From UHGV virus genome UHGV-1366990: a DNA stretch of 64,000 bases, one strand, 5' to 3'. The notes below the pieces were generated by a model. The model did not search any database. It was not told where the DNA came from and saw only the letters and a program-made list of their open reading frames with translations. This document shows positions 3,190 to 17,623 of the stretch, in pieces; the first letter of the stretch is position 1; every line of letters starts with the position of its first letter. This stretch comes from a virus. The position numbers and the translations under genes are program-made.

Positions 3190-4698
3190 ATGGCAGACAT
3201 TCAGATTGTTAAGGTTAACGAAGTCCGCATGCGTTGCATCGCAGATCTTTCTATCAGGGAAGAACTTAATGACTACTTCAAATTCGAAGACCCGAACTTC
3301 GTTCCCAACCCCTTCTCTAAATGGGACGGGGTTGTCCGCCTATTTACCAAGTCATCTGGTCTAATCGATATCGGTCTGCTGTTTGAGGTATTTAAGTTCT
3401 GTAAGAACAACGGATACACCATTGAACTGGATCCGGCACTGAAGTACATTCAGGACATCCCAGATGAAGAAATCCGTGAATTCATCGACAGCCTGCATCC
3501 AAAGATCCGTACCGAAAATCACGAATATATCGATGCCGAGACTCGTGACTACCAGTACGACACCATCGCCAAGGCTATGCGTCAAACCAGATGCGTCTGT
3601 GAACTGGCTACGAGTGCCGGTAAGTCCTTTATTCTGTATGTCATGGCGCGGTACTACAGGCGGCGCAGAGAAGCTCTCGAAAGTCCTCTGAAGACGCTTA
3701 TCGTGGTGCCGTCAATCCACCTAGTCACTCAGCTGTACGACAACTTCGAAGAGTATGCGCATGGCAGTGATTGGAAGCCCGTTGTTAACACCCAGCTGAT
3801 TTTTGAGGGCGCGACAAAGGAGATCAGTAAACCAATCGTCATCAGCACATGGCAGGGCATTCAAGACCAGTCGAAGGAATGGTTCCACCAGTTCGGCGAT
3901 ATCGTGGTGGATGAAGTGCACACCTCCAAGTCTGAGAAACTGTCTTACATCCTGAACAACTGCATCTATGCCGACCAGCGCCTGGGGGTTACAGGTACGC
4001 TGGCGAACACCAAAGTTGCCGGGCTTCAGGTGGTGGCTCACTTCGGGGCGTACCATAAGATCATCACGGCTCGCGATCTTATCAATCTCGGGTACGCCAC
4101 TGACATCAAAGTGAAGATGATTCAGCTGAAGCACACTCCGGCGGATGCTGTTGGTCTAGACGGGGATTATTCCAAGGAAATAGAATACCTTATTACACAC
4201 CAGTCCCGCAACGAACTGATCGCCAAGATGGCACTGAATCTGAAAGGGAACGTGGCCATCATGTTCGAGCGTATTGACGCCCACATGATGGTTGTGTACG
4301 ATATGCTGAGCGCAGTCAAGCCCAACGTGTTTGTCATCAACGGGGAAGTGAAGATCGAAGACCGCCGCCGCATACAGAAAGCGATGGAGGATGGAGAAGA
4401 TATCACGTTGTTGGCTTCATACGGGACAATGCAACAGGGTGTGTCAATCAAGAAGCTACACCACCTTGTACTGGCACACCCGAGCAAGTCATATATCCGT
4501 GTCATACAGACATTGGGTCGTCTGATGCGTCAGCACTCCTCTAAGGACGTCGCGTGGATATGGGACTTAGTGGATGATGCATCGTACAACGCCAGCACGA
4601 ACCACGCTCTCAGGCACTCTCATGAACGTTACAAGTTTTACCTGGCAGAGCGCCACCCCGTGGAGTTCATGAAGGTGGCGCTGGGCAATCACGATTAA
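3190..4698 (+). CDS. uvsW: UvsW-like SF2 DNA helicase
   Basis: N-terminus resembles T4 UvsW; Walker A TSAGKS, DEVH box; internal ATG at 3190 (MADIQ...) of ORF 3097..4698. Confidence 0.85.
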   Translation: MADIQIVKVNEVRMRCIADLSIREELNDYFKFEDPNFVPNPFSKWDGVVRLFTKSSGLIDIGLLFEVFKFCKNNGYTIELDPALKYIQDIPDEEIREFIDSLHPKIRTENHEYIDAETRDYQYDTIAKAMRQTRCVCELATSAGKSFILYVMARYYRRRREALESPLKTLIVVPSIHLVTQLYDNFEEYAHGSDWKPVVNTQLIFEGATKEISKPIVISTWQGIQDQSKEWFHQFGDIVVDEVHTSKSEKLSYILNNCIYADQRLGVTGTLANTKVAGLQVVAHFGAYHKIITARDLINLGYATDIKVKMIQLKHTPADAVGLDGDYSKEIEYLITHQSRNELIAKMALNLKGNVAIMFERIDAHMMVVYDMLSAVKPNVFVINGEVKIEDRRRIQKAMEDGEDITLLASYGTMQQGVSIKKLHHLVLAHPSKSYIRVIQTLGRLMRQHSSKDVAWIWDLVDDASYNASTNHALRHSHERYKFYLAERHPVEFMKVALGNHD

Positions 4699-5066
4699 TC
4701 TTGATTCACATAGGCGGGGGTGGCCTCGCCTTCATCAGTTACTACGCCGAACAATTTATCCAGAGAAGCCAGACATTGTGAGTTTAGGTGTTCACTGATC
4801 GTATCCTTCAGCATTTCTTCGCTGCCCAATTTGAATGGCAGAACTTTCGCTTCGATGCCGTTTTCAAACGTCACCACACCGACATACAGACCAACTTTCA
4901 GACCTGTCATCAAACCCAGAGGGACAAATCGCGGCTCCGATGGTAAGTTCTTGTCTGACGCCAGCTGTGTCAGATAAACCGGGGTGCCTGTGATAAATTG
5001 ACCTGTGGTGAGGTTGGCGTCTGGCTTACTACACCCGACTGCGTATAATCCTACGAACTGTTTCAT
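4695..5066 (-). CDS. Hypothetical protein
   Basis: 123-aa minus ORF, 4-nt convergent overlap with uvsW; followed by a 360-bp AT-rich intergenic region. Confidence 0.5.
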   Translation of the reverse strand: MKQFVGLYAVGCSKPDANLTTGQFITGTPVYLTQLASDKNLPSEPRFVPLGLMTGLKVGLYVGVVTFENGIEAKVLPFKLGSEEMLKDTISEHLNSQCLASLDKLFGVVTDEGEATPAYVNQD

Positions 5067-5181
5067 ATATTACTCTCGTGTGTTGGTTAACATGACATAC
5101 ATATTATTTCGCGTGCATGTTTAGACCAAATAAATTAATTTTGCTGTTGAATAAAAACTGCTTTCTTGTTGAACAACGGCG

Positions 5182-8103: not shown

Positions 8104-8976
8104 ATGACAACTACATTTTCTAAGAACGTGAATCTGAATCTGGCTTTCGGTAATGCAAAGGGCGACGTCACATCGCCCGACTTTGGTAAGATCCGCAATC
8201 AGGCGAAACTGGTGCTGGAAGAAACTCGTGAACTGCTAGAAGCGGCGTATTTCGACCACGAGGTGAAAATTGAGTTCACCGCATCTCCGCGAGTCCTGAA
8301 AGAACCCGTTGTTGTCGACATCAAAGACATTATGCGCCAGATCATGGATGCCCAGGGCGACATCACAACAGTCAACGACGGTTTGGCTCATATTGCTGGT
8401 TTCGACGGTGACGAATGCCTACAGCGCGTGTATGCGTCTAATATGAGCAAGTTCGTTCGCAATGAAGGTGAAGTTGTTCCAGCGCTGGAGTATTACTATA
8501 ACAAAGGATTCCCACGCGAAAGTCTACGCATCGAAGGGGAATTCCCTCAGGCGTGCATCAAAGTGGTGGACACCATCACTGTCGACAGCAAAGAATACCC
8601 GGCTGGCAAGTTCCTGAAGAACATGGCAACCTTCAAAGAGCCTGACTTCTCTGATATGTTGACCACCGAGCCTAAGCGCCAGATCACCGAAATCATTCTG
8701 ACGGGCACGGCTACCCCAGGTCGACTCGGATGCAACGAACATGCTGGTGTTGCCTACGCGCCGTTCGATTTTATTGACGAGATCGTGGGATACACCAAGA
8801 TGGGTTTCCAGGCGTTCTCTGGCGAAACAGTCGAGAGCTACATTCCCGTGTTTGTTTTCAATGAAGACAACTTCCCAACTCTACCGTTGATCTGGGGTGA
8901 ATGGAAAGCCAACGTCCGTATCTATGTGGCCAGCCCAGTGCAATCATCTATCACCCAACTGACCCGTATCGATTAA
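8104..8976 (+). CDS. Hypothetical protein; N-terminal region weakly MazG/HisE-like
   Basis: 290-aa ORF; EETRELLEA motif; sits where T4 has gene 43. Confidence 0.55.
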   Translation: MTTTFSKNVNLNLAFGNAKGDVTSPDFGKIRNQAKLVLEETRELLEAAYFDHEVKIEFTASPRVLKEPVVVDIKDIMRQIMDAQGDITTVNDGLAHIAGFDGDECLQRVYASNMSKFVRNEGEVVPALEYYYNKGFPRESLRIEGEFPQACIKVVDTITVDSKEYPAGKFLKNMATFKEPDFSDMLTTEPKRQITEIILTGTATPGRLGCNEHAGVAYAPFDFIDEIVGYTKMGFQAFSGETVESYIPVFVFNEDNFPTLPLIWGEWKANVRIYVASPVQSSITQLTRID

Positions 8977-9044
8977 GATATACAGTTATTCACTAAACAA
9001 CAGAGGCTATAATGGCCTCTGTTTTCGTATTCTAAGAGGATACC

Positions 9045-10268
9045 ATGAAAGATAAACCATATGACATCCCATATTGCGGTGTCCGTGAAACCAAAATCAA
9101 ATCAGCCCATCCTATGTTAAGTTCATTCCACCGCCAGCTGGCATATGAATGGATGAGGGATCGTTATGCGATACATGTCAAGAAGGACGTGCAATGCCTT
9201 CCAGCGCCATGGACGGATAATCCGGTATTACGCCAAGTCAAGTTTTGTAACGTGCGGAGAGAGCACGATAGACAGTCTCGAAATTTGATCAATAATATCA
9301 TCCTCAATCAGGATCTCACGCTATCTGACAAAATGTTCAACTGTGTATTGTTCCGCATGTACAACATGTGGGAACCTATACAGGCTTTGGGTGGTCCATG
9401 GACGATCGAAGAATTCGGAAACATAAATCTTGAATGGTGTCGAAATGTTCTTCAGGAATTCGAATCTAAAGGTGGCAAAGTTTTCACCAATGCGTTTAAT
9501 ACAGGCGGTCTGAAACAATGCCTGGCTTTCCCCGAACTAGTTGTCAACCACAAGGAGCATCACTTCGGTGGGATGATGGTGAATCTGATCTGTAAAGACG
9601 GTTCAATCCAGAACATGGATTACAAGGAAGCCAAGGCCATCGCTGAAGCAGAGCCGGACTTCTACACCATCGAAGGTTGGGAACCGTACATGCCAATGCG
9701 TGTCATCCGCTCCCTGAAGGCATTCGTCAACAAACACCCTCATTACTTTGATCGCCTCAGGGAATTTAGCCGTCCCGACTCTGTTTACCAGGCGATGTAT
9801 GACGACATTGAGGGGCTTGGACCATTCTTGGCATACCAGATTTGGGTTGATTTTACATACATCGATGAATATCCATTCAGTGAAAACCACTTCACTATCG
9901 CTGGTCCAGGTTGCCGTGCTGGTATCGATCTGTTATTTTTGGACAAGGACGGCATGACGCATGAAGAATGCATATTCTGGGTTCGTGATCATCAAGATCA
10001 ATTGTTCGCTCAGTATGGGTATAAACGTAATGAATTTTGGTCGGCAGAAGAACCGGAAGACCGTTGCATGAATGTTATGCAGCTGGAGAACATGTTCTGT
10101 GAACTTCAGAAATATACCCGCTGCGTTGAGGCAGTGATGCGCGGGGAGAAACCTCGAGGAAAGGTGGGGTATGACGGGAATGGCAGTGCGTATAAGCAAC
10201 GTTGTGATGAAGTCGTGCTCAAACGTGGTTCCGTCAATTTGCTGGACCGTTTGAAGAAACCTGAATAA
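9045..10268 (+). CDS. Hypothetical protein (407 aa)
   Basis: Long ORF with RBS AAGAGGA; no motif recognised by eye. Confidence 0.65.
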   Translation: MKDKPYDIPYCGVRETKIKSAHPMLSSFHRQLAYEWMRDRYAIHVKKDVQCLPAPWTDNPVLRQVKFCNVRREHDRQSRNLINNIILNQDLTLSDKMFNCVLFRMYNMWEPIQALGGPWTIEEFGNINLEWCRNVLQEFESKGGKVFTNAFNTGGLKQCLAFPELVVNHKEHHFGGMMVNLICKDGSIQNMDYKEAKAIAEAEPDFYTIEGWEPYMPMRVIRSLKAFVNKHPHYFDRLREFSRPDSVYQAMYDDIEGLGPFLAYQIWVDFTYIDEYPFSENHFTIAGPGCRAGIDLLFLDKDGMTHEECIFWVRDHQDQLFAQYGYKRNEFWSAEEPEDRCMNVMQLENMFCELQKYTRCVEAVMRGEKPRGKVGYDGNGSAYKQRCDEVVLKRGSVNLLDRLKKPE

Positions 10269-13281: not shown

Positions 13282-14056
13282 TGAACCCCAAGGTGTTGAG
13301 CTGAAGGGTAAATCTGTTCGCGAAGGTCTAAGGCTATCTCCAGATCTTCTGAAGTCACACATTGCCGAAGTCATCTATGAAGACCGTGAAGTCGGCGGCC
13401 ACCGCGTCATCACCTGCCACTTCAAGATGGACAACGGCTTTGTCGTGTGGGGTAAGAGTAGCTCTACTTCCATCGACCCTGCCAACTTTGATGAAGAGTT
13501 GGGCAAGAAGCTGGCCTATGACAAGACCTTCTCCCAGTTGTGGGAACTGGAAGCCTACCGCGCCGTTGTGGAGAAGCAGATGTTGGAGGTGGCTACCGCC
13601 GATGCGAAGATAGACATCTTCCAGTACATCTCCGAAAGGGGGAAGATAAATCATATGGCTGGGATGGAATTCTTACAAGGCCACGGTCAGTCTTTCGTGT
13701 TCCGACATCCACGAGACCCAAGTCGCGGATTCGGTGCTGAATTTATTCAGACTGACAACGAACGCCACAACGAACAATTCAATGGTAAATCCCGAGAGAA
13801 GGTTGAAGCCTATCTGCGTTCGTTCATGCGCCCGGATGAATTGTATTCTGAACTCGTTGTTCGTCTGGCCAAGACTTGCATGGCGGCCTACAAGGGTGGG
13901 ATCTACTTTAATGCCACCTCTTGGGATAAGATGAGCGCCGAAGAACAGAAAGACTGCTGTGATGACGTCAGGCGGCTCTTGCTGGCTCCGACGGATTATA
14001 CCCCAACCGACCAGAAGGATGCGCTGTTCAAGGCCATCGTTGATTCTTACAAATAA
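13262..14056 (+). CDS. Hypothetical protein
   Basis: Internal ATG (MATINRNEPQ) of ORF 13229..14056; overlaps upstream gene by 20 nt. Confidence 0.55.
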   Translation: MATINRNEPQGVELKGKSVREGLRLSPDLLKSHIAEVIYEDREVGGHRVITCHFKMDNGFVVWGKSSSTSIDPANFDEELGKKLAYDKTFSQLWELEAYRAVVEKQMLEVATADAKIDIFQYISERGKINHMAGMEFLQGHGQSFVFRHPRDPSRGFGAEFIQTDNERHNEQFNGKSREKVEAYLRSFMRPDELYSELVVRLAKTCMAAYKGGIYFNATSWDKMSAEEQKDCCDDVRRLLLAPTDYTPTDQKDALFKAIVDSYK

Positions 14057-14087
14057 CTGAATTATCAAAGTCCTTCAATAACAATAA

Positions 14088-14118
14088 CGCCCAGTATATT
14101 TGCTGGGCGTTTCAATTT
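14088..14118 (+). terminator. Rho-independent terminator
   Basis: CGCCCAG..CTGGGCG stem followed by T-rich tract. Confidence 0.5.
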
Positions 14119-14129
14119 GTACATCACAG

Positions 14130-14135
14130 TATAAT
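14130..14135 (+). promoter_or_regulatory. -10 hexamer TATAAT upstream of 14167
   Basis: Perfect TATAAT 32 nt upstream of ATG; -35 weak. Confidence 0.35.
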
Positions 14136-14166
14136 ACGGCTGTACAATACACCATGAGGTTACATT

Positions 14167-14435
14167 ATGTTTCGTTTGAAATTGAACGACCAAGATGTGT
14201 TCTACAAACACTTCACCTTCCCAGGTGGTGAGGAACATATCAAGATTCAAAAATCTGGTATCCCTATCGGCCATGTTCAGAACGTGGTGATTGATGCTCA
14301 CATCAAATCATCAGACGTTCAGAAGCGGTTGGCTCTATCCAGCGCCTGTGGGAGATCTTTGAAACTGGGCACTTCCTGTTGGATGAGCACATCGGCCTGA
14401 TCTACGGTGATTCTATCACCCCCCCTGGCGCGTGA
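14167..14435 (+). pseudogene. Small gene apparently split by a frameshift (frame 1 from 14167 continuing in frame 3 to stop 14433..14435)
   Basis: Frame-1 ORF 14167..14400 ends in low-complexity tail while the overlapping frame-3 stretch 14295..14435 (no ATG) reads as a natural C-terminus (IQRLWEIFETGHFLLDEHIGLIYGDSITPPGA). Confidence 0.35.
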
Positions 14436-14485
14436 AGACCGCTATTAAATCCCAACAGGGCGTCGTCTCTGTTAAGTGAGATCAA

Positions 14486-14701
14486 ATGATACTGAAAGAA
14501 TGTTTTACCGACCTGAAGGCGACGTCTGAAAGTATTCCGGCTTGCATTCAGAACTATGCTCCAAAGGATGTGCTCTTGGCTCAGCTGGAGCAGTCTCGTG
14601 AGTTTATCAACAATATGCTGGACTCTGTAAAGACGCGCATCGAAGCCGCTGATGAGTCTGAACTTAACCCTTACGCACAAGGCGAAGAGAACAATGATTG
14701 A
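14486..14701 (+). CDS. Hypothetical small acidic protein
   Basis: 71-aa ORF, stop overlaps next start (ATGATTGA); weak RBS. Confidence 0.4.
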   Translation: MILKECFTDLKATSESIPACIQNYAPKDVLLAQLEQSREFINNMLDSVKTRIEAADESELNPYAQGEENND

Positions 14702-16895
14702 ATCATTAGAATTTAAGAATGCGGTTGCGACTGCTGCCCCGTCCAACCATGTAATCGTTGTAGACATTTCCGGCTCTATGTACCGTGCGCTCCCTGAAGT
14801 CCGTAAGCATCTGAAGGAGAACCTGCCTTCCCTGGTGAAACCGGAAGACACTGTGAGTGTTCTATACTTCTCATCCAAAGGCGACTTTGGCACTGTGTTC
14901 GCTGGCCGTCAGATCAATGCAGCATCCGACCTGAGCGAAATCAACAATCTGATTGACCGTTTCCTGCAACCATCCGGCTGTACTGGTTTCGTTGAGCCAT
15001 TGAAACTGGCGATGGACACTGCTCGTGGCCTGAAGAAGCCTGGCTATGTCAACAACCTGGCGTTCATGACTGACGGGTATGACAACTGCTGGCGTACCAA
15101 CGAAATTCTACTGGTTGCTGAGACCCTGCCATTTGCTTTTGATAACATTACATTTATCGAATATGGCTGGTACTGTAACCGCGAACTGCTGGCGCAGATG
15201 GCCGAACGCTCTGGTGCTACTCACGTGTTTGCCGAAGGTCAGACCGAATACCAGACCGAGCTGGAAAACGTGCTGAAGTCATCAGTGCCGAAGGTGAAAG
15301 TTGATGTCCCAGTCATCTACACCCATGCCATCTACGTCGAAAACGGTGTGGCAACAGTACTGGCGGTGCAGGACGATGACTCTCACCCGGTCGGCTATGT
15401 GAGCATCCCTGAGAGCGTCACCAAGCTGTGGGTTGTAAACCCTAACATGATCGACCAGCTTGATGCGCTGGCGGATATCCAGGCGGCATACGTGCTGGCG
15501 TTCTACGGCGTACACATCATGGACGCGGACCTGGTGTGGGCTGCACTGAAGAAAACAGGTGACGTTCGCTTCATCAAACAGTACAGCAACTGCTTCACCA
15601 AGCAGGACTACTCCAACATCAAGAACGATCTGGTTCAGGCGATTGTTGAAGACCAGCTGCGCGGCGTTGACGGTATTGACTATGACCTGGTTCCGGCTGA
15701 AGATGCGACCACCGTCGTTGATGTGCTGACGTACCTGGCTGAAGCTGGTGTGCCTGTTGCTACCAAGCATCCGATGTTCTCCTATAAGAGTATCGGGCGC
15801 GGTACTGTGCAGAAAACCGACGACACCGAAGACAAGCTGGCAGAACAGATCGCGAATGCTCAGTCCAAAGAAGAGCGTAAAGCCCTGGCTCTCAAGCTGG
15901 CAGAGCACGAAGAGTGGAACCCGACGTTCGAACCTACCAACGACCTGGGTGTTGTGCCAATCAGTGATTTGGTCTATAACTTCGAGCGCCCGAACATCAG
16001 TGTGCGTACAATTCAACACGGTACTGTGGCTGTGCCTGAATTCGCACAGAAGAAGTTTGGCCTGCCTGAAGAACTGGACACTTTCCAGTGGCGCAACTAC
16101 ACCATCGTCAAAGACGGTATCATCAACGTGAAGACTCTGCCGTTCAAGGCTGATATCGAAGTTGTACAGAAGCTGATCGAAATGGGCGTCCACGTGTTTG
16201 GTGGTCCGGAAGTGTTTGTCCTGAACCTGGAAAGCGTACCGCTGGTCAACCGCGCCATGGTCAAGAACATCAGTGCTGCTCAGTTCTTTGCGGATAATGT
16301 CCGTCTGGAAGCCCTGAAAGGTAAGCAGAAGGTGCTGAAGTTCTATCGAGACGCCCTGGTTGGTAAGGGTAACGCCAAAGGCCTGGCAGTACAGTACGGC
16401 GCTGAGGCGGCCGAGTTCCTGTCCTCCTACGGCATCCGCGATTACGGCTTCTCACCGAAGACTGAGACCAAAGAGTCTACCGACTTCTACATGAGCCGTG
16501 AGCTGAACGTGAAGATCGCCGGGGCGTCTTCACTACCGAGCATCGCGGCAGTACAGAAGAAGATCGCAGAGAACAAGAAACTCAATGCTGGTGACTTGTT
16601 CATCGCCAATGCTCTGAAAGAGTACGAAGCATTCGTGAAGTCTCCTATGATCACTGCCGTGCCTGAAGCCTTACAGAAACAGCTGATCGAAAACTGGATC
16701 GACGCTGCTGCCAAGGCGGCCATCACCGAAGTCCGTGCCCTGAACAAGACGCTGTCTAAAGTGGTGTATGGTATCGTTGCTGGTCATGGCTGGTTCACCG
16801 ACCTCGACCTGGAAGAGTCCACCATGGAAGTTGAAGTGGATGGCGTGAAGTACAAGGTCACTGCCGAACTGACAGAGAAAGAAATCAAAATCTAA
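14694..16895 (+). CDS. von Willebrand factor A (vWA) domain protein, 733 aa
   Basis: N-terminal VIVVDISGSM (DxSxS MIDAS motif) and downstream MTDGYDN; long C-terminal region of unknown function. Confidence 0.75.
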   Translation: MIESLEFKNAVATAAPSNHVIVVDISGSMYRALPEVRKHLKENLPSLVKPEDTVSVLYFSSKGDFGTVFAGRQINAASDLSEINNLIDRFLQPSGCTGFVEPLKLAMDTARGLKKPGYVNNLAFMTDGYDNCWRTNEILLVAETLPFAFDNITFIEYGWYCNRELLAQMAERSGATHVFAEGQTEYQTELENVLKSSVPKVKVDVPVIYTHAIYVENGVATVLAVQDDDSHPVGYVSIPESVTKLWVVNPNMIDQLDALADIQAAYVLAFYGVHIMDADLVWAALKKTGDVRFIKQYSNCFTKQDYSNIKNDLVQAIVEDQLRGVDGIDYDLVPAEDATTVVDVLTYLAEAGVPVATKHPMFSYKSIGRGTVQKTDDTEDKLAEQIANAQSKEERKALALKLAEHEEWNPTFEPTNDLGVVPISDLVYNFERPNISVRTIQHGTVAVPEFAQKKFGLPEELDTFQWRNYTIVKDGIINVKTLPFKADIEVVQKLIEMGVHVFGGPEVFVLNLESVPLVNRAMVKNISAAQFFADNVRLEALKGKQKVLKFYRDALVGKGNAKGLAVQYGAEAAEFLSSYGIRDYGFSPKTETKESTDFYMSRELNVKIAGASSLPSIAAVQKKIAENKKLNAGDLFIANALKEYEAFVKSPMITAVPEALQKQLIENWIDAAAKAAITEVRALNKTLSKVVYGIVAGHGWFTDLDLEESTMEVEVDGVKYKVTAELTEKEIKI

Positions 16896-16901
16896 TCCAA
16901 C

Positions 16902-16925
16902 GGGCGGGGCAACCCGCCTTTCTTT
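16902..16925 (+). terminator. Rho-independent terminator after vWA gene
   Basis: GGCGGGG/CCCGCC stem followed by TTTCTTT. Confidence 0.6.
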
Positions 16926-16937
16926 GGGAGAAGTAGC

Positions 16938-17261
16938 ATGAGCAGTAAACCAACATATGTTGAAGTCATGCGTCATCTGGCTCAGTACGCCACCGACAAT
17001 CTGAATATGGATCTGTGGCGTGACGATGACAAGCGCAAATTGCTGGACGACGTGGCATCTCAGAACGAGGACGCCCTGGACAAGCTGGCTGGCCTCCGTA
17101 CCAAGAAAGACCTCGGCGGTGATGAACTGGACGCTATCGAAATCGTAATGGACCTCGAAGAAGAGTTTCAGGTCGAAATCGACGACGGCTGGCTGGGTAG
17201 TAAAGGCGATGACCCGACCATGGGTGAACTCGCTGAACTCGTGGTTGCCCTGCGCAAATAA
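16938..17261 (+). CDS. Acyl-carrier-protein-like protein with Glu in place of the phosphopantetheine-site Ser
   Basis: DLGGDELDAIEIVMDLEEEFQVEI aligns with E. coli ACP [24 protein letters not shown]; flanked by terminators. Confidence 0.7.
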   Translation: MSSKPTYVEVMRHLAQYATDNLNMDLWRDDDKRKLLDDVASQNEDALDKLAGLRTKKDLGGDELDAIEIVMDLEEEFQVEIDDGWLGSKGDDPTMGELAELVVALRK

Positions 17262-17267
17262 CAGAAG

Positions 17268-17292
17268 TCCCCAACAAACGTTGGGGATTTTT
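17268..17292 (+). terminator. Rho-independent terminator after ACP-like gene
   Basis: TCCCCAAC/GTTGGGGA stem followed by TTTTT. Confidence 0.6.
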
Positions 17293-17303: not shown

Positions 17304-17332
17304 TTTACTTCCTCTAAGGAATGTCCTATTAT
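17304..17332 (+). promoter_or_regulatory. Early-type promoter TTTACT-N17-TATTAT
   Basis: Exact 17-bp spacing; directly follows terminator hairpin. Confidence 0.6.
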
Positions 17333-17383: not shown

Positions 17384-17623
17384 ATGAAGAACAAAATGGT
17401 CGAAACTTCAGTAGAGATTGATCGCAATTGGGGATTGCTCCGCGCTAAAGGGTTCCGCCGTGTGTATGCGACCAAAGAAGTCTACGCACAGCGTCGTGAC
17501 GTTATCATCAGCAAGAAAGGCAAAGAGTGGGTTGCTGAAGAAGTTGATGTCGAGACAGGCATCGTAGGAAAGGTAAAGGCCAAGGCCGCGATCCTCTTCG
17601 CTCTTCTGAAGCACATCAGTTAA
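17384..17623 (+). CDS. Hypothetical small basic protein
   Basis: 79-aa ORF downstream of TTTACT-N17-TATTAT promoter. Confidence 0.55.
   Translation: MKNKMVETSVEIDRNWGLLRAKGFRRVYATKEVYAQRRDVIISKKGKEWVAEEVDVETGIVGKVKAKAAILFALLKHIS

Follow-up and report, generated by a model that had tools for sequence, protein, structure and literature searches.

A serine-less acyl carrier protein-like gene of Ackermannviridae phages with a conserved carboxylate at the cofactor site

We analyzed a 64,000-nt stretch of viral DNA, UHGV virus genome UHGV-1366990 (hereafter, the window). An open reading frame (ORF) at 16938..17261, stop codon included, encodes a protein with the fold of acyl carrier proteins (ACPs) in which the serine that should carry the cofactor is replaced by glutamate. 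The ORF and the mapped elements around it, from the upstream gene to the downstream promoter, lie on the plus strand. The coding sequence starts with ATG and specifies 107 amino acids, and direct reading of the sequence revealed a Shine-Dalgarno-like GGGAG (16926..16930) 7 nt before the start codon. The product, of 12,083 Da when the initiator Met is counted, is acidic, with a pI of 4.2, a net charge of -14 and 27 D+E residues versus 13 K+R.

The resemblance to ACPs was observed in several searches. The protein matched the Pfam profile PF00550 with 24.7 bits against a gathering score of 20.8, the match covering only profile positions 26-66 of 67, and it matched PF14573 with 27.5 bits, below the gathering score of 32. 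Ten NCBIfam ACP models all scored far under their cut-offs, the best being TIGR00517 (33.7 versus 70.45 bits). PHROG 4154, labelled 'acyl carrier protein', aligned its profile positions 1-108 of 108 with residues 1-107 (E = 2.6e-57). A phmmer search of all PDB sequences returned ACPs exclusively; the best was the ACP of B. subtilis (E = 1.6e-5), and E. coli AcpP was found at E of about 2e-4. Compared with E. coli AcpP by BLASTP, the protein showed 17/27 identities over KDLGGDELDAIEIVMDLEEEFQVEIDD (residues 57-83), which encloses helix II. Helix I occupies approximately residues 7-21, and the predicted structure is a compact ACP four-helix bundle. The original prediction for this DNA had described the gene as ACP-like, with a product aligning with the core of bacterial ACP. 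The PF00550 score, the PDB matches, PHROG 4154 and the predicted fold all agree with that description.

We found that codon 63 is GAA (17124..17126). In HMMER alignments to solved ACPs, the glutamate that it encodes falls on the phosphopantetheine-attachment serine, which is Ser36 in E. coli AcpP. Every printed PDB alignment placed DELD of the query on DSLD of the ACP, with Glu63 on the phosphopantetheine serine. The same was seen in the relatives. All of 27 homologues with 57-98% identity have the segment G-G-D-[E/D]-L-D (25 with E, two with D), and serine is invariant at no position of the protein. At this site, D-[E/D]-L is also shared by every one of the relatives with 33-49% identity. When 36 members were pooled, position 63 was E in 83% and D in 17% of them, and serine was never observed. 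At the nucleotide level, codon 63 is GAA, GAT or GAC in 11/11 loci checked, and the pairwise dN/dS of the gene ranges from 0.05 to 0.35. Because of the acidic codon in all loci checked and these dN/dS values, we conclude that this is a functional gene rather than an ACP in decay, and that it maintains a carboxylate where the cofactor would sit.

Phosphopantetheinyl transferases (PPTases) transfer their group to the serine hydroxyl in a DSL context. As this serine is absent across the family, the protein would be unable to become holo-ACP by any known chemistry. The replacement of the attachment serine by glutamate, as stated in the original prediction, was confirmed for the window, and all 36 members have Glu or Asp there; the loss of conversion to holo-ACP that the prediction had named would follow by the known chemistry. 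A protein that is still a carrier, modified on another residue or through unusual Glu/Asp chemistry, seems hardly credible to us. Nothing direct speaks for it, apart from a threonine, T94, that is conserved in 92% of members. However, T94, the sole conserved hydroxyl residue, aligns with Thr63/64 of AcpP, a structural residue where helix IV begins, and no conserved serine or cysteine was seen elsewhere in the protein among the 36 members, which leaves no conserved candidate for modification of another serine, a finding that would have undermined the prediction. In addition, no Ackermannviridae record matched an E. coli AcpS query in a tblastn search for AcpS-type transferases, a search that did not extend to Sfp-type PPTases. 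Pfam revealed no ACP-using enzyme in 13 neighboring ORFs (12 distinct genes) between 9045 and 21700, where it recognized only VWA, Phage_gp49_66, DUF3268 and a 5-hmdU DNA kinase.

No segment of the family is better conserved than the docking face of helix II (residues 62-77, DELDAIEIVMDLEEEF; 17121..17168). In 36 sequences, its mean column entropy was 0.71, the lowest of all segments, versus 2.27, the highest, for an insert between helices I and II. D62, L64, I67, E68 and E74 are invariant in these sequences, and M71 is also fixed in the family. Docking of E. coli AcpS needs D35, E41 and E47/E48 of AcpP (bioRxiv 10.1101/2025.01.28.635281). All of these are kept in the phage protein, as D62, E68 and E74/E75. 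Together with the identity to AcpP and the low entropy, this supports the earlier claim that the acidic face of helix II was retained. Judged by its sequence, the gene product is a non-carrier ACP paralogue under purifying selection. We regard it as firmly established that this is an ACP-fold non-carrier, selected to keep both a docking helix of the AcpP type and a carboxylate in the place of the cofactor serine.

The pattern of conservation also bears on a simpler explanation, in which the protein is a generic polyanion, a DNA mimic or a polycation sink, and net negative charge alone matters. Its pI of 4.2 and net charge of -14 would suit such a role, and many phage anti-restriction proteins are acidic DNA mimics. 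T7 gp5.9, one of these mimics, is reported to inhibit MukBEF (PMC7617805). However, the conservation is position-specific and not compositional, with D62, L64, I67, E68, M71 and E74 fixed. The insert varies most, although no other stretch is as acidic. The predicted fold is also a compact ACP bundle, unlike an elongated, DNA-like array of charges. We therefore consider this explanation very improbable.

Two further parts of the protein are specific to this lineage. The insert between helices I and II, at about residues 24-52 (17007..17093), comprises about 30 variable residues that are not present in canonical ACPs according to the alignments, and it was modelled as two short helices. It occurs as two cassette-like alleles, one in Ag3 and PhaxI and the other in the window, pertopsoe and RC-2014, and the flanks are near-identical. 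The alleles differ sharply at codons ~24-46 (17007-17075 of the window). The alleles cross genera, Agtrevirus Ag3 sharing one with Kuttervirus PhaxI, and the window sharing the other with Kuttervirus pertopsoe and Limestonevirus RC-2014. This distribution in the sequences indicates recombination or diversifying exchange. The second part is the motif W85-x-G87-x3-D91-D92-P93-T94 (17190..17219), which replaces the canonical helix III and its loop and is three residues longer. Each of its residues is conserved in 92-97% of the 36 members, and helix IV then follows. The motif is also common to three short relatives from phage contigs (P0050, P0052 and P0055).

The window region was 97% identical to Escherichia phage vB_EcoM-RPN242 and 88-97% identical to other Agtrevirus and Kuttervirus phages of the Ackermannviridae; judged by these identities, the window is from an Ackermannviridae phage. 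By tblastn, the ACP-like protein was found in 272 phage records, almost all with labels that name Enterobacterales as hosts (Salmonella, Klebsiella, Escherichia, Dickeya, Shigella, Serratia and others). The tblastn matches of the window protein were to Ackermannviridae-type records only, except for one short match in a Pseudomonas jumbo phage, the one outside match that was checked. The gene is a core gene of the whole family Ackermannviridae. A profile search of 1.84 billion representative proteins added distant full-length relatives with 33-49% identity, and the contigs carrying them are Ackermannviridae-like. One peptide of the ACP-like protein has been reported in the proteome of a Vi01-like phage (PMC10892097).

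In Erwinia phage vB_EamM-Bue1 (MG973030, genus Nezavisimistyvirus), an ORF of about 99 codons that is unannotated in GenBank lies at ~4810-5109, directly after the vWA gene. It matched the profile of the ACP-like family at E = 1e-8, has the motif AMDELDYIEFIMELEDD and reads AMDELD at the cofactor site. To judge from this match, it is a divergent member of the serine-less family and the most distant of the 36.

The label "acyl carrier protein", which the original prediction did not mention, is already present in many GenBank records of this gene and in PHROGs; in the record of Ag3, the name goes back to a PSI-BLAST match. Both the resemblance to ACPs and the gene family were thus already known. 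What is new is that the serine is missing in the entire family and that Glu/Asp is selectively kept in its place, and also that other phages, as well as lipoprotein-like proteins from metagenomes, have similar serine-less look-alikes of ACP. In full-text literature searches on ACP and phage ACPs, we found no report of the missing serine in Ackermannviridae and no paper on a phage ACP decoy.

The gene upstream, at 14652..16895, was listed as an ORF of 747 amino acids and encodes a von Willebrand factor A (vWA) domain protein with an intact metal ion-dependent adhesion site (MIDAS; DxSxS...T...D). The original prediction had placed the ACP-like gene directly after a vWA-domain gene, and the identity of this neighbor was confirmed. 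The model of the vWA protein had a pLDDT of 85, with residues 1-14 disordered (pLDDT below 50). Because these residues are disordered and the homologues have 733-734 amino acids, the true start is probably Met15 at 14694 (MIESLEFK), giving 733 amino acids. The PHROG and consensus alignments also begin at Met15. A start at 14694 would overlap the stop of a conserved upstream ORF of 71 codons (14486-14701) by 8 nt. Across 30 vWA homologues, the MIDAS residues D38, S40, S42, T111 and D141 never change. Homologues of the vWA protein were present in 502 phage records, including Straboviridae (KP15, RB43 and Thanatos-2), Bacillus phage AR9 and Rhizobium phages.

In the window, the vWA and ACP-like genes share a reading frame, and in the Ackermannviridae-type loci examined they are always adjacent. 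This strictly conserved pairing, which was not part of the original prediction, supports the main rival explanation of the ACP-like gene. According to it, the protein is a dedicated ligand or subunit of the vWA protein, Glu63 completes the metal site of the MIDAS, and the pair acts jointly. The carboxylate is located at the N-terminus of helix II, where ACPs project their cofactor into partners, and acidic ligand residues complete the MIDAS metal coordination in integrin I-domains. Such an arrangement would account for the carboxylate being obligatory and for the two genes being kept together. The vWA gene lies directly upstream, with a gap of ~40-50 nt, at all Ackermannviridae-type loci examined, and the pairing persists down to 33-40% identity of the ACP-like protein and in phage Bue1. 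The counts also match, with 272 records of the ACP-like protein versus 270 with a vWA homologue of at least 60% identity. The MIDAS residues are invariant as described above, site 63 is always acidic, and both products were found in one proteome, with one peptide each. However, the vWA family is far wider than this pairing, as the 502 phage records indicate, and no ACP-like ORF was found within 2.5 kb of the vWA gene in KP15 and Thanatos-2, the two loci checked. Conversely, serine-less ACP-like relatives are present where there is no vWA gene. Since these phages are collinear over the whole region, adjacency alone is weak evidence, and a terminator-like hairpin separates the two genes. On balance, a role as vWA ligand appears rather unlikely to us.

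The original prediction had described the ACP-like gene as insulated by terminators, and terminator-like hairpins were indeed located on both sides of it. A terminator scan detected a GC-rich hairpin with a T-rich tract between the two genes at 16902..16927 (hairpin 16902-16919, then TTCTTT). This hairpin, with folding energies of -13.6 to -17.8 kcal/mol, was found at the same place in 12/12 loci (the window and 11 relatives) with differing stems, including GGGCGGGG, GCCGGGG, GGGGGC and AGCCGGG. As the stem sequences differ while the hairpin stays, the structure has been kept through compensatory changes, which implies that selection acts on the structure of the RNA or terminator as such. The hairpin is annotated as a terminator in phage KWBSE43-6; we regard it as terminator-like, or as a processing or stability element. 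A promoter scan revealed no promoter-like site between it and the start of the ACP-like gene. Since the hairpin precedes the gene and no promoter lies between, the gene is probably expressed by read-through or processing.

The second hairpin, TCCCCAAC-AAAC-GTTGGGGA followed by TTTTT, lies directly after the stop codon at 17268..17292 (hairpin 17268-17287). It was found in 9/12 loci; two Taipeivirus loci and Bue1 have weak folds of -6 to -7 kcal/mol. The promoter scan then detected a sigma-70-like promoter (TTTACT, 17 nt, TATTAT) at 17304..17332 for the next gene (17384..17623). The sequence GTTTACTTC, at times with one change, follows the ACP-like gene in most related loci; the stretch of one locus (L006) ends before it. 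This promoter marks the end of the transcription unit of the vWA and ACP-like genes. The unit starts with a terminator and promoter region at ~14086-14140 and continues with the ORF of 71 codons, the vWA gene and, as the last, the ACP-like gene.

In relatives, the unit additionally has genes for ribose-phosphate pyrophosphokinase and nicotinamide phosphoribosyltransferase. Both genes, which belong to NAD salvage and are present in pertopsoe, AV101 and LHE287, are gone from the window, where a deletion scar was observed at 14027-14440. Compared with positions 8289-10114 of a related locus (L001), about 1.8 kb has been lost. The recognizable remnants are the first ~49 codons of the pyrophosphokinase gene (14167 onward, with an out-of-frame tail) and an internal fragment of the nicotinamide phosphoribosyltransferase gene.

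Five genes upstream of the ACP-like gene, a 5-hmdU DNA kinase gene (9045-10268; PF18723, E = 1.6e-83) is a marker of the pathway for thymidine hypermodification that ViI-like phages typically have. By analogy with ACP-fold subunits of some mitochondrial complexes, the ACP fold of the phage protein might serve as a pure protein-binding module, an adaptor for another phage enzyme of nucleotide metabolism or thymidine hypermodification. This seems quite improbable: no specific partner candidate emerged, and according to Lee et al. in 2018, the known hypermodification pathway reportedly needs no ACP.

The explanation that we favor, tentatively and with somewhat less than an even chance of being right, is that the protein docks in ACP fashion on a partner of the host AcpP, as a permanently unloaded stand-in. 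The original prediction had already raised a decoy of host ACP, a reading that seems plausible. The protein would be made during infection from the end of the operon consisting of the small ORF, the vWA gene and the ACP-like gene. Its helix II would attach to the basic patch of one of the proteins to which AcpP normally binds. As it could never be loaded, it would act as a permanently 'apo' stand-in, and the charge at the cofactor site may imitate the phosphate. The partner would then be blocked, or be occupied regardless of the lipid state of the host. Candidate targets would be partners of AcpP that can do without the prosthetic arm, or on which apo-ACP acts as an inhibitor. They may include AcpS, whose docking residues are all kept in the phage protein; MukB, which takes apo- and holo-AcpP equally; and, as a third candidate, PlsB, which is inhibited by apo-ACP. 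The ATPase of MukB is stimulated equally by apo- and holo-AcpP (PMC8602292), a precedent for an arm-independent partner. For an ACP from a phage that was not named, binding to FabZ of the host has been predicted by computation (bioRxiv 10.64898/2026.03.01.708874). We also found serine-less relatives of the type G[GA]DELD...DDP on phage-like contigs without a vWA neighbor; therefore, the fold can work alone.

Several points weigh against this stand-in. Helix II is no closer to enterobacterial AcpP than to the ACPs of Bacillus or organelles, and therefore there is no signal of host-specific mimicry. AcpP is present in the cell at about 100 uM (PMC8602292), so a simple competitor would need high expression or a much higher affinity. 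The conserved terminator-like hairpin before the gene, with no promoter between, argues against very high expression. The strict adjacency to the vWA gene in Ackermannviridae fits a phage-internal partner equally well, and a helix-capping role could account for part of the preference for D/E. As to origin, recent capture of a host gene was rejected, for the phmmer search of PDB gave no extra closeness to enterobacterial AcpP. The original prediction had also mentioned anti-defence; PADLOC gave no basis for such an assignment, as its only match to the ACP-like protein was a meaningless one of 11 bits (E = 0.036) and the vWA protein had none. The search for transcriptomes of Ackermannviridae in the literature yielded nothing usable.

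The idea of a stand-in can be carried further. Ackermannviridae, and independently other phages, would have turned a lipid cofactor protein into a cofactor-less mimic, in which the carboxylate imitates the phosphoserine link and which hijacks or blocks an arm-independent hub of AcpP (MukBEF, AcpS or PlsB). We consider this broader version rather unlikely.

The finding also affects annotation. Hundreds of Ackermannviridae genomes label this gene "acyl carrier protein", which implies a function in lipid metabolism that the protein cannot have, and many of the labelled phages are biocontrol candidates for Salmonella, E. coli, Klebsiella or Dickeya. An obligately cofactor-less ACP alters both the annotation and the question to be asked. 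The partners of AcpP include enzymes of fatty-acid, lipid A and phospholipid synthesis as well as MukB, SpoT, IscS and SecA (PMC8602292). AcpP is among the most connected hub proteins of E. coli, and a copy of its docking face would probe which contacts matter in infection. If true, the mimic reading would establish mimics of a protein cofactor as a new class among the host-takeover proteins of phages. The serine-less look-alikes in unrelated phage contigs and among lipoprotein-like proteins suggest that the ACP fold is put to non-carrier use more widely than previously recognized.

Compared with known systems, the phage protein differs from E. coli AcpP (PF00550, TIGR00517) above all at the cofactor site, where AcpP has Ser36 and the whole phage family has Glu/Asp and hence is no carrier. 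It also differs in the insert of ~30 residues between helices I and II, in the three-residue-longer region of helix III with W-x-G-x3-DDPT, and in its score with the AcpP equivalog models, which is less than half of the cut-off given above. Bona fide phage ACPs (for example PHROG 5934; the 'putative acyl carrier protein' of Caudoviricetes sp. MW202777; an ORF of Bacteriophage sp. MT837021) are alike in being small, acidic and of the PF00550 type, and PHROG 5934 matched residues 48-84 of the ACP-like protein at E = 8.6e-10. However, the ACPs of MW202777 and MT837021, the two that were translated, keep the serine of DSL/DSF and can be carriers; the Ackermannviridae family never has this serine.

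Other serine-less proteins resemble the family in part. P0050, P0052 and P0055, short proteins from phage contigs, share the serine-less helix II and the DDP motif, but unlike the Ackermannviridae protein they have no insert between helices I and II and no vWA neighbor. In Vibrio phage 277E43-1, VP277E431_P0098 (3980-4513 of locus L012) has 177 amino acids, with an N-terminal ACP-like domain that has Asn at the serine site (DNLD; LGFDNLDFVELLMALEEEF) and is fused to an unrelated C-terminal extension. On the strength of this sequence, it is another independent serine-less phage look-alike of ACP. Seven metagenomic proteins (P0097, P0099, P0113, P0117, P0120, P0148 and P0166) have a serine-less LGAD[E/D]LD and an N-terminal hydrophobic stretch ending in Cys. 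These lipoprotein-type features suggest that extracytoplasmic, cofactor-less ACP-fold proteins may exist in bacteria. The contigs of P0148 and of the related P0174 are shorter than 1 kb and uninformative on context.

ACP-fold proteins also serve as structural subunits rather than carriers, among them SDAP/NDUFAB1 of mitochondrial complex I and ACP-like subunits in the complexes of ciliates, euglenids and trypanosomes. In its canonical form, SDAP/NDUFAB1 is acylated and binds LYR proteins through its acyl-pantetheine arm, in which it differs from the phage protein, and the biological context of these subunits is unrelated to that of the phage protein. Another parallel is the inhibition of E. 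coli growth by apo-ACP, reportedly described by Keating, Carey and Cronan in 1995; no phage protein is known to exploit it. As in the reading proposed for the phage protein, an ACP without its arm can disturb the lipid metabolism of the host, with the difference that in apo-ACP inhibition the protein is the host's own and is overproduced.
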